The position numbers and the translations under genes were made by a program. A stretch of 61,162 nt of DNA from Collinsella sp. (lineage in GTDB: Bacteria > Actinomycetota > Coriobacteriia > Coriobacteriales > Coriobacteriaceae), in assembly GCA_022745215.1 (NCBI GenBank), contig JAIIWC010000001.1:1-61162 (forward strand), given 5' to 3'. This document shows, in pieces, positions 12,314-23,437 of this stretch. How positions within the stretch are numbered: position 1 is the first letter of the stretch; each line of letters opens with the position of its first letter. The notes under the pieces were generated by a model. The model did no database searches. It was given only the letters and a program-made list of their open reading frames with translations, and was not told where the DNA came from.

Positions 12314-12397
12314 AGCCCCTCAATCACAAGCAAAGCAATAAACAGCCTCAATAATACGGCAAACACCATATCGATTGTCAGGGTAACAAAAATGCCA

Positions 12398-12751
12398 AGT
12401 GGGCCTATAAGCCGGGTTCTGTCGTGAACGGTCATTTATCTTGTCTGCACGTTACCGCGCAGCTCCACGCACGCTACCCGAACGCGGACCGGGCCGGCCC
12501 ATAGCGTTCCTATTCGCGCTTGCTCCGGATGGGGCTTGCCAAGCCGCCGTGTTGCCACGACGCTGGTGGTCTCTTACACCACCGTTTCAGCTTTTCCCTT
12601 TACGCCTTGCGGCGCAGGTGGGAGTCTTCTTTTCTGCGGCGCTTTCCGTCGGATCACTCCGCCCGGCCGTTAGCCGGCATCCCGCCCTCTGGAGCCCGGA
12701 CTTTCCTCACGCGTGCTGCAAGCAGCACATCGCGCGACCGTCTGGCCCACT
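12398..12751 (-). ncRNA. rnpB: RNase P RNA, bacterial class A
   Basis: Minus strand has GAGGAAAGTCCGGGCTCC, TGAAACGG, GGAGCAAG and ACAGAACCCGGCTTATAG; P1 AGTGGGCC/GGCCCACT. Confidence 0.95.
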
Positions 12752-13019
12752 CAGCAGTGCAAGAGTGTAACACACCGTTGCCGCAGGCAACGGCACAACA
12801 CAAGCGCTCGCACGATAAACCAAGAACCGCCCATGCGCTACAATAGTCCCGTCGATGGGCAACGTCGTCAGTCGAGACACGACCGCGCTCCGCACCCCTC
12901 CGTCTACTCGGTGTGTTCCCGCCTCCACCCCGAGGCGGGATGTCGGCATTTTTCATGCACCGACAACCAAATAGCCTGTGGACAGCCCGGGCAGCATCAC
13001 GCACCTCAGCAGCAAATGC

Positions 13020-19966: not shown

Positions 19967-20084
19967 GGAACCGTCCCCTTTCATCAAATCCCAAAACAAG
20001 CGCCCAAAGCAATACGCCCTGTCGCTAAAGCGATTTTTCAACCGCTAGTTTTACACATTCCCCACCGTGCGCGGGGCCATGTAG

Positions 20085-20255
20085 CTAATTTGCAAAGAAG
20101 TGACGCACCAGGCACTTGGCGCCCAACGTCTCCCTCCGGATGTTGCCCTGCGAACCATCGATCCAGGCCTTCAGGCTCATAGGAACGTCCTCGACCTTTA
20201 CAGCATCGAACTCGGGCGCGAGGGAAAGTAAAGCATGCGCGACAGCATTGAACAT
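20085..20255 (-). CDS. Small hypothetical protein (56 aa)
   Basis: GAGGAG 8 nt before ATG; MFNAVAHALLSLAPEFDAVKVEDVPMSLKAWIDGSQGNIRRETLGAKCLVRHFFAN*. Confidence 0.55.
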   Translation of the reverse strand: MFNAVAHALLSLAPEFDAVKVEDVPMSLKAWIDGSQGNIRRETLGAKCLVRHFFAN

Positions 20256-20486
20256 AATGGATACTCCTCATATATATGGGCACAGAGTCGCCAAATTGAT
20301 AGAAGGAGCCCCGCCGGACAACCCCGGCGGGGCTCGGACTCAGCCGCAGACGCGGCATCATATATGCGGGCGGAACGTAGGGGCCACCGATGTTAAGAAG
20401 TGTCAGCAAGCATAACGAAAGGTAAGGACCCCGTGCGCCCGTTATGTATCACGCGGATGGGCCGCGCGGATACCAAGGAAAGGGCC

Positions 20487-21713
20487 TTAAGCCTGGGCGG
20501 CAGCAGAGCTGGGACCCTGGACCTTTGCCCACGTCTTGAGCGACAGCGTATCGATCTCGATAAAGCCGGCGCTGGCCTTCTCGTCAAACGTGGTGTCGCG
20601 ATCGTAGGTAGCCAGACCGTAGTCGTAGAGGCTGAAGGGGCTCTTGCGGCCGACGACATGGCAGTTGCCCTTAAAGAACTTCAGACGGACGGTACCGGTC
20701 ACGAACTTCTGGGTATCGGCCATAAAGGCATCGAGCGCGTTTTTGAGCGGGCTGTACCACTGGCCGTTGTACACGGCGGTGGCCCAATCCTGCTCGAGCT
20801 TGATCTTGGTCTTGAGCAGGTCGCCCTCGACGCAGATGTCCTCAAGCGCCTTGTGGGCGGTGATGAGCGTCAGGGCGCCGGGAACCTCATAGCACTCGCG
20901 GCTCTTAAGGCCCACCAGGCGATCCTCGACCAGATCGAGACGGCCAAAGCCATTGTCGCCGGAGATCTTGTTGAGGGCGATGACGATCTCGGAGAGCTTC
21001 ATCTTCTTGCCGTCGACGGCGACAGGCTTGCCGGCCTCAAACTCAATCTCGGTGTAGGTCGGAGTGTCCGGCGTGTCCTCGGGGTTCTTGGTCATAACCC
21101 AGGCGTCGTCGAGCGGCTCGTTCCAGGGATCCTCCAGGTGGCCGCACTCAATGGCACGACCCCACAGGTTGTCGTCGATGGAGTAGGGGTTGTCGTTGGC
21201 ACCCTCGGGAACCGGCACGTTGTGGGCGTGGGCGTAGGCGACCTCGTCGGGACGGCACTTCAGGTCCCACTCGCGAACCGGGGCGATAACCTTAAGCTCG
21301 GGGTCGAGGGCCTTGACGGCGGCCTCAAAACGGACCTGGTCGTTACCCTTGCCGGTGCAGCCGTGGGCGACGTAGGTCGCGCCAAACTCGTGGGCGACCT
21401 CAACAAGCTTCTTGGCAAGCAGCGGGCGAGACAGGGCGGAGAGCAGCGGATACTTGTTCTCGTACATGGAGTTTGCGGCGATGGCTTTGGTCAGGAACTC
21501 ATCGGAGAACTCGTCACGCAGGTCGAGCACCTGGCAATCAAGAACGCCCAGGTCGAGCGCCTTCTGCTTCTTGGCATCCAGGCCGGTCTCCTCCTGGCCC
21601 ACGTTGCCGCAGACGCAAACGACATCGAGATTCTTCTCGTCCTGGAGCCACTTGACACATACGGATGTATCAAGACCACCGGAATATGCGAGAACGACTT
21701 TTTCCTTGCTCAT
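20487..21713 (-). CDS. argG: Argininosuccinate synthase
   Basis: LAYSGGLDTS, HGCTGKGNDQVRF, YSIDDNLWG, KSRECYE. Confidence 0.97.
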   Translation of the reverse strand: MSKEKVVLAYSGGLDTSVCVKWLQDEKNLDVVCVCGNVGQEETGLDAKKQKALDLGVLDCQVLDLRDEFSDEFLTKAIAANSMYENKYPLLSALSRPLLAKKLVEVAHEFGATYVAHGCTGKGNDQVRFEAAVKALDPELKVIAPVREWDLKCRPDEVAYAHAHNVPVPEGANDNPYSIDDNLWGRAIECGHLEDPWNEPLDDAWVMTKNPEDTPDTPTYTEIEFEAGKPVAVDGKKMKLSEIVIALNKISGDNGFGRLDLVEDRLVGLKSRECYEVPGALTLITAHKALEDICVEGDLLKTKIKLEQDWATAVYNGQWYSPLKNALDAFMADTQKFVTGTVRLKFFKGNCHVVGRKSPFSLYDYGLATYDRDTTFDEKASAGFIEIDTLSLKTWAKVQGPSSAAAQA

Positions 21714-21917
21714 GGCTGTTTCCTTTCGCCCTTGGTAGCTAGTTAGAACATCGGTCAGTTGCAAGTCATTTCAAGGTCGAATACCGTGCAATATCAGGTT
21801 AAATAGCAAAAATCAGCACATACATGCCCTAGAAACATGCAGCAATATCGTGCTAAACCCAACGACCTCAAAATGACTCTGTTGAGGCAATTCGCCCCAT
21901 GGGAACAGAGACGATTG

Positions 21918-21992
21918 TTATCGTCGTCGGGAAATTGCGCGCTGGCGTCGGATGGCATTGTCTGCAGTAGTGATAATCTTTACGAACTGCAT
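21918..21992 (-). CDS. Putative Arg-rich leader peptide of argG (24 aa)
   Basis: GAAAGGAGAGG RBS, ATG at 21992, MQFVKIITTADNAIRRQRAISRRR*; ends CGA CGA CGA TAA. Confidence 0.75.
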   Translation of the reverse strand: MQFVKIITTADNAIRRQRAISRRR

Positions 21993-22266
21993 CTGCCTCT
22001 CCTTTCACCTATCGCCGGGCGCAATTCATATATCGTAAACGGTACCTTTTCCTCGGTAAGCGGTTGTTTTTCCGTCTCCGTTTTCGATGTTCGCTATATT
22101 ACGCTAAAGTGCCAGCAGCACAAGCGACAAATTCAAATTTCTGAAAAGTTTTTTCATTAGTTTGTGAATTGCAGTGCAAGTACGCACCATTCCTGCGAAA
22201 ATACGCTCGATTACATAGCAGAGGGTCATTACGCCCGAAACAATCTGGAAACGGAAAGGCGCATTT

Positions 22267-23094
22267 ATGCAGACTTATGAATCAGACGCCAACATCGGCA
22301 ACATTAAACTCATCGCCGTCGACATGGACAAGACGCTGCTCACCGACGAGCGCGTGTTGCCGCAGGGTCTTGATGAGCGTCTGGACAAGCTCGCCGACGC
22401 CGGCATCGTATTCTGCCCCGCCAGCGGACGTCCCGCTCCCAAGCTCGAGGAGATGTTCGAGGGCATCAAGAACCGCCTTGCTTTTTGTCCCGACAACGGA
22501 GCCTCCGTCATCTATCGCGGCAGCTATATCTATAAGAGCAACATCGATGTGGCGCTGTATCAGCAGGTGCTCGCTCGTGCCTCGGAGGACCCGCGCGCCG
22601 TTCCCGTCCTGTGCTGCTACGACGAGTTCTATGTGCTCGCCCGCGACCATCAATACCACGACGAGATCAGCGTCTACTACAACACGATCAACTACGTCGA
22701 CACCTTTGAGGGCATTGATATCGAGTCCAATAAGATCTCGATCTTTTTCCCTGCCTACGATGCCGAGCCGGCGTTTCGCGAGGACTACAACCCGGCATTC
22801 TCGGACCGACTCTACGTCACCAATGCGGGCCGTGAGTGGATCGACTTTATGAATCTGGGCGTCGACAAGGGGTCGGGCGTGGCTCATCTCTGCGAGCGCC
22901 TGGACATCGATATCGCCGACGCCGCTGCCGTGGGCGATACGTACAACGACATCCCCATGCTGGAGCGCGTCGGGCATAGCTTTATCGTGGACAATGCCGA
23001 GGAGCACATGAACGCGCATGCCAAGTGGCGTATTCCGAGCAACAACGACGGGGGCGTACTGACGCTCATCGACGCCATCTTGGCGGCTCGGTAG
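22267..23094 (+). CDS. Cof-type HAD-IIB hydrolase
   Basis: VDMDKTLL, ASGR, DNGA, VDKGSG, GDTYNDIPML. Confidence 0.92.
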   Translation: MQTYESDANIGNIKLIAVDMDKTLLTDERVLPQGLDERLDKLADAGIVFCPASGRPAPKLEEMFEGIKNRLAFCPDNGASVIYRGSYIYKSNIDVALYQQVLARASEDPRAVPVLCCYDEFYVLARDHQYHDEISVYYNTINYVDTFEGIDIESNKISIFFPAYDAEPAFREDYNPAFSDRLYVTNAGREWIDFMNLGVDKGSGVAHLCERLDIDIADAAAVGDTYNDIPMLERVGHSFIVDNAEEHMNAHAKWRIPSNNDGGVLTLIDAILAAR

Positions 23095-23274
23095 CCGTCC
23101 CATCGGGCCTGGCCGGGCGGCACGGGATAACTTTTCGCTCGGTCAGGTCCTGCGCAAGACGAAAGCCACATTAAGTGGCTTTCTTTGCGTGCGGAATCTA
23201 CGAAAAGTTAACCCGTGCCGCCCGGCCAGGCCCTAGGTTTACTTTCCTGCCGCCAAGATGGCGTCATGAGTGTC
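23061..23274. repeat. Giant nested inverted repeat (~214 nt)
   Basis: 22-bp perfect arms 23105-23126/23212-23233, 10-bp arms inside, and 17-bp perfect outer arms 23071-23087/23249-23265. Confidence 0.85.
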
Positions 23275-23349
23275 GAGATACTTAGCTGAAATGATTTGAG
23301 CAGAGGGGAGCTCCTTGTTGGAAGGGGCTCCCCTCTGTTTTGGTTACTG

Positions 23350-23389
23350 TGGGACAAATTAATCAGTAGTGTTTGTCCCAAATCTTAAG
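23350..23389. repeat. 40-bp dispersed repeat family B, copy 2
   Basis: TGGGACAAATTAATCAG-TAGTG-TTTGTCCCAAATCTTAAG. Confidence 0.85.
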
Positions 23390-23437
23390 TATGTGGGGGC
23401 TTGCGTCTTGGACGAGCTTGCCTTACGGAGTGCTTCC

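Follow-up and report, generated by a model that had tools for sequence, protein, structure and literature searches.

The window, i.e., the entire stretch of 61,162 nucleotides of Collinsella DNA analysed here, carries argG and argH on its minus strand. The original prediction had placed an arginine-sensing leader upstream of argG. The Pfam domains identify the gene as argG, as named there, with argH next, and the Shine-Dalgarno (SD) sequence, the 24-codon open reading frame and its arginine-rich end all lie where they had been described. The promoter, transcript and coding features are as follows.

22123-22096, minus strand: putative promoter read by eye, −35 at 22123-22118 and −10 at 22101-22096
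22073-22072, minus strand: accumulation of RNA 5′ ends (RNA-seq, close strain)
22006-21996, minus strand: SD of the leader ORF (from the sequence)
21992-21918, minus strand: leader ORF of 24 codons (P0001; from the ORF list, conserved among relatives)
21950-21939, minus strand: first Arg cluster, codons 15-18 of the leader ORF (from the sequence)
21929-21921, minus strand: three terminal CGA codons of the leader ORF (from the sequence)
21727-21718, minus strand: SD of argG (from the sequence)
21713-20487, minus strand: argG, argininosuccinate synthase (Pfam PF00764 and PF20979)
19966-18536, minus strand: argH, argininosuccinate lyase, downstream of argG (Pfam PF00206 and PF14698)

Six of the last ten leader codons specify Arg, four of them as CGA, and the ORF terminates in CGA-CGA-CGA-stop. 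The leader is an SD-led short ORF enriched in codons for the amino acid of the pathway, as is characteristic of classical attenuators. Its stop codon lies 204 nt from the argG ATG (21713), in agreement with the ~205 nt predicted. The claimed rarity of CGA also held up: across 647 long ORFs of the window's genome, ~3% of the Arg codons are CGA, and only one of these 647 ORFs has a three-Arg terminus. Within the same genome, five of 548 genes, argG among them, are preceded by a short SD-led ORF that contains two CGA-Arg pairs. Searching the whole window with Rfam at gathering thresholds returned no family in the leader and no T-box or riboswitch; the sole match was a class A RNase P RNA at 12392-12753. 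A promoter/terminator scanner likewise made no call in the leader.

Transcription was assessed from three stranded RNA-seq runs of a single study, employing a strain ~96% alike. The 5′ ends at 22072-22073 comprise 25, 50 and 39 molecules in the three runs, at a depth of 116-128 that drops to ≤31 upstream, and the true transcript start may lie ~15 nt further upstream. The putative promoter is absent from the list of the consensus scanner. Just 5′ of its predicted −10, a block at 22110-22102 has similar counterparts before the leader in many relatives and is possibly a factor site or an extended promoter element. From ~22073, minus-strand coverage runs unbroken through the leader ORF into argG in all three runs; in the close strain, the leader ORF is thus part of the argG mRNA. 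Depth was ~184-280 in the leader versus ~118-258 over the initial 385 nt of argG (ratio ~1.2), and the leader showed neither a clear step nor a 3′-end pile-up. As a standard library possibly loses short RNAs and the medium is unknown, these data neither show nor exclude termination. Two other stretches stood out. The 520-nt gap between argG and argH (19967-20486) had an RNA depth of ~50-70 versus 100-200, possibly reflecting an internal terminator, a second promoter or a degenerate gene, and the window differs strongly from the RNA-seq strain at 23090-23433 (skips, loose ends).

Aligning the argG upstream regions, a check named in the original prediction, revealed that the leader ORF and its terminal Arg/CGA run are conserved in relatives. 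Among 61 near-identical loci, in which some genomes are counted twice, frame and stop are kept in 60 and one reads through. Across the Coriobacteriaceae, the family of the window, the Arg/CGA end is conserved down to 59% ArgG identity, and in distant members the ORF is 37 codons long, differs at the N-terminus and has an identical end. All 17 aligned loci of this family share the pattern of the last ten codons: the CGA positions are invariant, four neighboring codons vary synonymously, and the amino acids between both Arg clusters are retained despite the synonymous changes. The motif occurs in 56 of 63 genomes of the family, many of which are near-identical, while a reversed control pattern matched about one third of them, so that the position of the motif matters; 26 of the 30 returned motif loci lie 120-400 nt before argG. 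Two loci with a close ArgG, L064 and L075, have no leader upstream of argG. Both carry a stretch resembling an ARG box near the argG promoter and possibly represent a switch to control by ArgR only. In the window's genome, ArgR is encoded elsewhere and lacks the Arg tail described below.

The leader RNA was further analysed for its potential to fold, which yielded the following elements.

21925-21910, minus strand: hairpin A2:B spanning the final Arg codons plus the stop, 21925-21920 with 21915-21910 (consensus structure)
21910-21877, minus strand: helix C:D with an inner hairpin, 21910-21904 with 21883-21877 (folding models)
21879-21863, minus strand: segment E, 5′ arm of a long-range helix (17 contiguous pairs)
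21866-21858, minus strand: segment X, complementary to 21931-21923, i.e., the Ser codon and the first CGA codons (consensus structure)
21855-21808, minus strand: inner stem plus T-run of the original prediction (from the sequence)
21779-21763, minus strand: segment F, which forms the long-range helix as its 3′ arm or pairs alternatively with the argG start region (pairing analysis)

All of the competing helices that had been claimed are present, the long-range one (E:F) forming the 17 contiguous pairs. E:F shows covariation, being retained in 17/17 Coriobacteriaceae loci with several pair types, and in 14 of them the own pairing outscores every cross-group pairing. The argG start region is an alternative partner for F in each of the 17 loci, at −7.5 to −14.5 kcal/mol as calculated without a shuffle control. 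In the consensus fold, the CGA run takes part in two pairings, with X through its 5′ part and with B through its 3′ part. The A2:B hairpin is paired in 14-17 of 17 loci per column, with no two-sided changes, and the pairing of X shows a two-sided change at one pair in three of the 17 loci. The inner stem followed by TTTTT exists as predicted; its T-run is retained in 42 of the 61 near-identical loci, among which some genomes occur twice, and could not be aligned with more distant relatives. For lack of conservation we rejected this stem, which is probably not the regulatory terminator. The trp-like terminator implied for the window thus finds no support, and the RNA-seq of the close strain shows no step or 3′ pile-up that would reveal one. 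Clear intrinsic terminators other than this stem are present in six of the 17 aligned loci.

Related leaders were found in two further families. In the sister family, which we infer to be the Atopobiaceae, an SD-led ORF bearing two CGA-Arg pairs occurs at 23 of 30 argG loci, compared to the five of 548 genes in the window's genome. Under a looser rule, 24 leaders were obtained, two of them doubtful picks, and a hairpin-plus-T terminator was called in 19 of the 24. The Eggerthellaceae present a different arrangement. Among 28 argG loci chosen by ArgG match, 14 have a full-length ArgR that ends in CGA-CGA-CGN-stop ~150-310 nt before argG, usually with a hairpin over the stop; eight have a stand-alone ORF, one a 457-aa gene and five none of these. 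The ArgR-tail loci are L096, L099, L101-L103, L108, L109, L112-L115, L118, L121 and L123, together with 45 of L202-L270. In the body of the tail-type ArgRs, CGA makes up 43 of 535 Arg codons. Where ArgR lies directly before argG in three other families (n = 9; gaps of 33-220 nt), there is no tail. Seven ArgRs encoded away from argG comprise five without a tail and two that have three Arg but a single CGA and no hairpin. The 457-aa gene, located at L097 (genome G257) 274 nt before argG, has three terminal CGA codons and is putatively citrate synthase-like, judging from its motifs. A second short Arg-rich ORF at this locus lies nearer to argG. ArgR was not found in the G257 genome.

A metagenome scan, which fixed the last codons by its pattern and is therefore informative on start and frame only, showed an SD-led start in 115 of 118 loci with start and frame kept. 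A tail-codon count from a different search (110/135 CGA) was discarded, as it is largely forced by the search pattern; the loci chosen by ArgG match provide the count free of this constraint. A phylum-wide 17-mer search, which divergent members would escape, matched six of 401 genomes, four of them Eggerthellaceae and two chance-like. Moreover, 19 of 53 Eggerthellaceae-type leaders have a conserved multi-hairpin RNA 3′ of the stop. It includes two pairings that are long-range or between loops, and one of them shows a two-sided change in one sequence.

These comparisons bear on whether the Arg frame matters at all. If the element acted purely as RNA, i.e., as a hairpin, pause or terminator, the Arg frame would be incidental and argG would be under ArgR alone. 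Most bases of the CGA run are indeed paired in the consensus structure, and the window's genome does have an ArgR. However, across unrelated contexts the run remains in frame after an SD and a start codon, even at loci with a shifted hairpin or none (L070, L097, L100, L119, L121), and ArgR was not found in seven of ten Eggerthellaceae genomes picked for having a non-ArgR leader. We therefore regard an RNA-only element as very improbable.

Scanning 185,579 genomes for an exact 20-mer produced 69 matches: 45 ArgR tails with argG, eight leaders with argG, ten in Micromonospora and six others that look like chance. The Micromonospora matches (L221, L223, L229, L238, L249-L252, L267 and L270) are SD-led, Arg-rich ORFs of 14-16 codons with the same end and hairpin, and they precede the gene for arginyl-tRNA synthetase (ArgRS), as judged from a HIGH-like motif in nine of ten and Pfam in both of the two that were scanned. 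As all ten come from one genus, we count them as one lineage. That the motif also heads another arginine gene, argS, in another class provides the best evidence for charged tRNA-Arg as the presumed signal.

Taken together, the core of the original prediction, an Arg-codon leader controlling argG via ribosome stalling, appears strongly supported by conservation, by the intrinsic terminators of the sister family and by the same motif before argS; the part that did not stand is the trp-like terminator in the window. Our verdict from these comparisons is that the leader is a real, conserved regulatory element that would work like a ribosome-mediated attenuator. We do not class it as a classical transcription attenuator, because the lineage of the window lacks a conserved terminator. 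Probably, the conserved CGA-ended leader is a hungry-codon sensor that switches argG on when charged tRNA-Arg falls. According to this model, scarcity of charged tRNA-Arg would stall the ribosome on the terminal CGA run (A), which would remove the A:X and A:B pairings, leave the E/X region free to pair with F and thereby free the argG start. Arg codons that are not being translated would instead keep the E/X region occupied by pairing with X, and F, when paired with the argG start region, would block it. We infer translation of the leader, stalling and the direction of control; the ON state at low arginine follows from the logic of the pathway, the terminators of the sister family and the argS case. 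CGA is probably read by wobble from a tRNA with an ACG anticodon. No tRNA-Arg(UCG) was present among 40 tRNAs of the 85%-complete assembly, and a tRNA pattern search of five near-complete genomes, too strict to decide the matter, gave one match (ACG). A TadA-like deaminase domain is present in all five of these genomes.

Stalling could also be brought about by the nascent peptide itself, which would arrest the ribosome at high free arginine (or ornithine/citrulline) and turn argG off, in the manner of metabolite-sensing arrest peptides such as SpeFL, TnaC and the fungal arginine attenuator peptide. Such an arrest peptide would explain why the residues between the Arg clusters are kept amid synonymous changes, and it fits the sign of the short-transcript folding described below, in which a stall is predicted to hold E and leave F to block the start. 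The upstream peptides nevertheless range from 14-codon ORFs to a full ArgR and a 457-aa enzyme, and the rare codon is the feature that they share; the end of the leader peptide is conserved within the Coriobacteriaceae, not between families. Because the peptide varies while the codon is kept, and with ArgRS control fitting the sensing of uncharged tRNA and a stall in the sister family predicted to oppose the terminator, we consider an arrest peptide unlikely.

Equilibrium folding with a positioned ribosome was used to model the sensor in its two states. Accessibility of the ribosome-binding site (RBS) showed no consistent switch with ribosome position, neither in 42 loci nor in the 17 aligned loci. 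For full leaders of the Coriobacteriaceae, the opening energy of the argG RBS upon stalling was lower in six and higher in four of 17 loci, while E:F went up in five and down in one. In the leader of the window, E:F remained essentially unchanged upon stalling (0.72 to 0.65) and the RBS became slightly harder to open. In short transcripts, a stall favored C:D, with a mean shift of 0.34 versus 0.08 in shuffles (12 loci); in these models the C:D helix would hold segment E while the ribosome occupies the CGA run. E was held more upon stalling than with the ribosome at the stop position in 13 of 17 loci. Under a translational model, this preference for C:D would point to argG being OFF upon stalling. 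For the sister family, moving the modelled ribosome from the stop to the first Arg left the 5′ arm of the terminator more held in 14 of 19 leaders and less held in three, as computed without a shuffle control; the full-length terminator had a probability of ~1 at every ribosome position in seven of the 19, and several others showed no classical shift. Thus, the support that these models may lend to the direction of control is weak and partly contrary.

With charged tRNA-Arg as the probable signal, the output in the lineage of the window is most likely the argG start site, i.e., translational control, which is a guess about evenly balanced against termination. In the latter case, the same sensor would act by premature termination, through loading of Rho after ribosome release or through the A:X helix and a pyrimidine tract serving as a weak terminator. 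This output is favored by the clear intrinsic terminators that the sister family and the six aligned Coriobacteriaceae loci possess, by a Rho domain in 29 of 29 Coriobacteriaceae genomes and by the C-rich, G-poor tract (C 0.39, G 0.17) located 15-50 nt after the hairpin in the 53 Eggerthellaceae-type loci. The absence of Rho from the window's genome was rejected as an argument, being a gap of the 85%-complete assembly. Against termination, the window sequence 3′ of the stop is not C-rich, its T-tailed stem is not conserved, and the leader/argG depth ratio came without a 3′-end pile-up in the three runs of one study, with the reservations on short RNAs and medium given above. Termination is thus a nearly equal alternative output; it shares its sensor with our best explanation and takes up roughly half of that explanation's weight.

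For the wider family, we propose that sister-family leaders of this type finish with an intrinsic terminator and that sensing falls to the final argR codons in the Eggerthellaceae. More tentatively, an attenuator family spread across several Actinomycetota lineages might control argG and ArgRS, with the argR of Eggerthellaceae doubling as a leader: ribosomes completing ArgR would be halted at its three terminal Arg codons and thereby turn on the gene that follows. The stand-alone leaders, that of the window included, would perhaps be remnants of the argR 3′ end. In two of the Eggerthellaceae genomes without a detected ArgR, the leader occupies the place that argR has in relatives. Once the last three Arg were removed, local alignment of the leader peptide with the ArgR C-terminus was not significant (279/1000 permutations), and hhalign was negative. 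An ungapped sliding test, applied post hoc and strongest for one clade, gave 6/5000 for tail-type ArgRs and 947/5000 for other ArgRs. A relationship between leader peptide and the C-terminus of tail-type ArgR is thus only suggestive as judged from the sequences.

Leader-peptide control is textbook knowledge for Trp, His, Leu, Ile/Val, Thr and Phe. The original prediction knew of no described Arg-codon attenuator for argG in this lineage, and our full-text search of openly accessible papers, covering main texts, found no leader-peptide control of argG, argS or arginine synthesis; large surveys of attenuators and RNA motifs (Lopatovskaya 2010, Weinberg 2017) could list such elements. The available text of an Actinobacteria survey reports no conserved RNA element before arginine operons and names T-boxes as arginine control (PMC1262725), and the main text of PMC8632094 and PMC4833913, in the portions available, makes no mention of argG or of the Coriobacteriia names searched. 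ArgR operators and T-boxes are known means of arg control; unlike arginine T-boxes, the argG leader has no Rfam match.

The mechanism of classical attenuation is described, in the available text, for the Mycobacterium tuberculosis ilvB1 leader (PMC13236596) and in theory (PMC1183508). Like the trpL, hisL, leuL, thrL and ilvB1 leaders, the element combines an SD-led short ORF, pathway codons and competing helices before biosynthetic or synthetase genes, and in the sister family it also has the intrinsic terminator. It differs from them in having codons for arginine, which lie right next to the stop, in lacking a conserved U-tailed terminator in the lineage of the window, and in that the codons in Eggerthellaceae belong to a full-length repressor gene. 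A parallel in rare Arg codons is rbfL of Staphylococcus aureus, an upstream ORF that, according to the available text, responds to charged tRNA-Arg and influences how the following gene is translated; it employs AGA/AGG, overlaps the downstream RBS, represses upon stalling and controls a biofilm regulator (PMC13009471). In contrast, the argG leader has CGA codons, lies those 204 nt upstream and precedes arginine synthesis. The SpeFL peptide reportedly has a role in ornithine arrest. In the Salmonella speF leader, consecutive Arg codons in the upstream ORF (orf34/SpeFL) alter leader folding, with Rho and RBS sequestration involved, and unlike the argG leader the target is ornithine decarboxylase, as stated in the available text (PMC6386406).

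The argG leader would add arginine synthesis to the pathways under leader-peptide control, in a lineage with culturable Eggerthellaceae members, which makes the proposal directly testable. If the ArgR tail is a sensor, a full-length repressor gene also serves as the leader of its neighbor, which would illustrate one way in which leader peptides arise. With differing predicted outputs, i.e., a terminator, an RBS switch and a possible Rho site, this one leader family may offer a natural series for studying how attenuators change.
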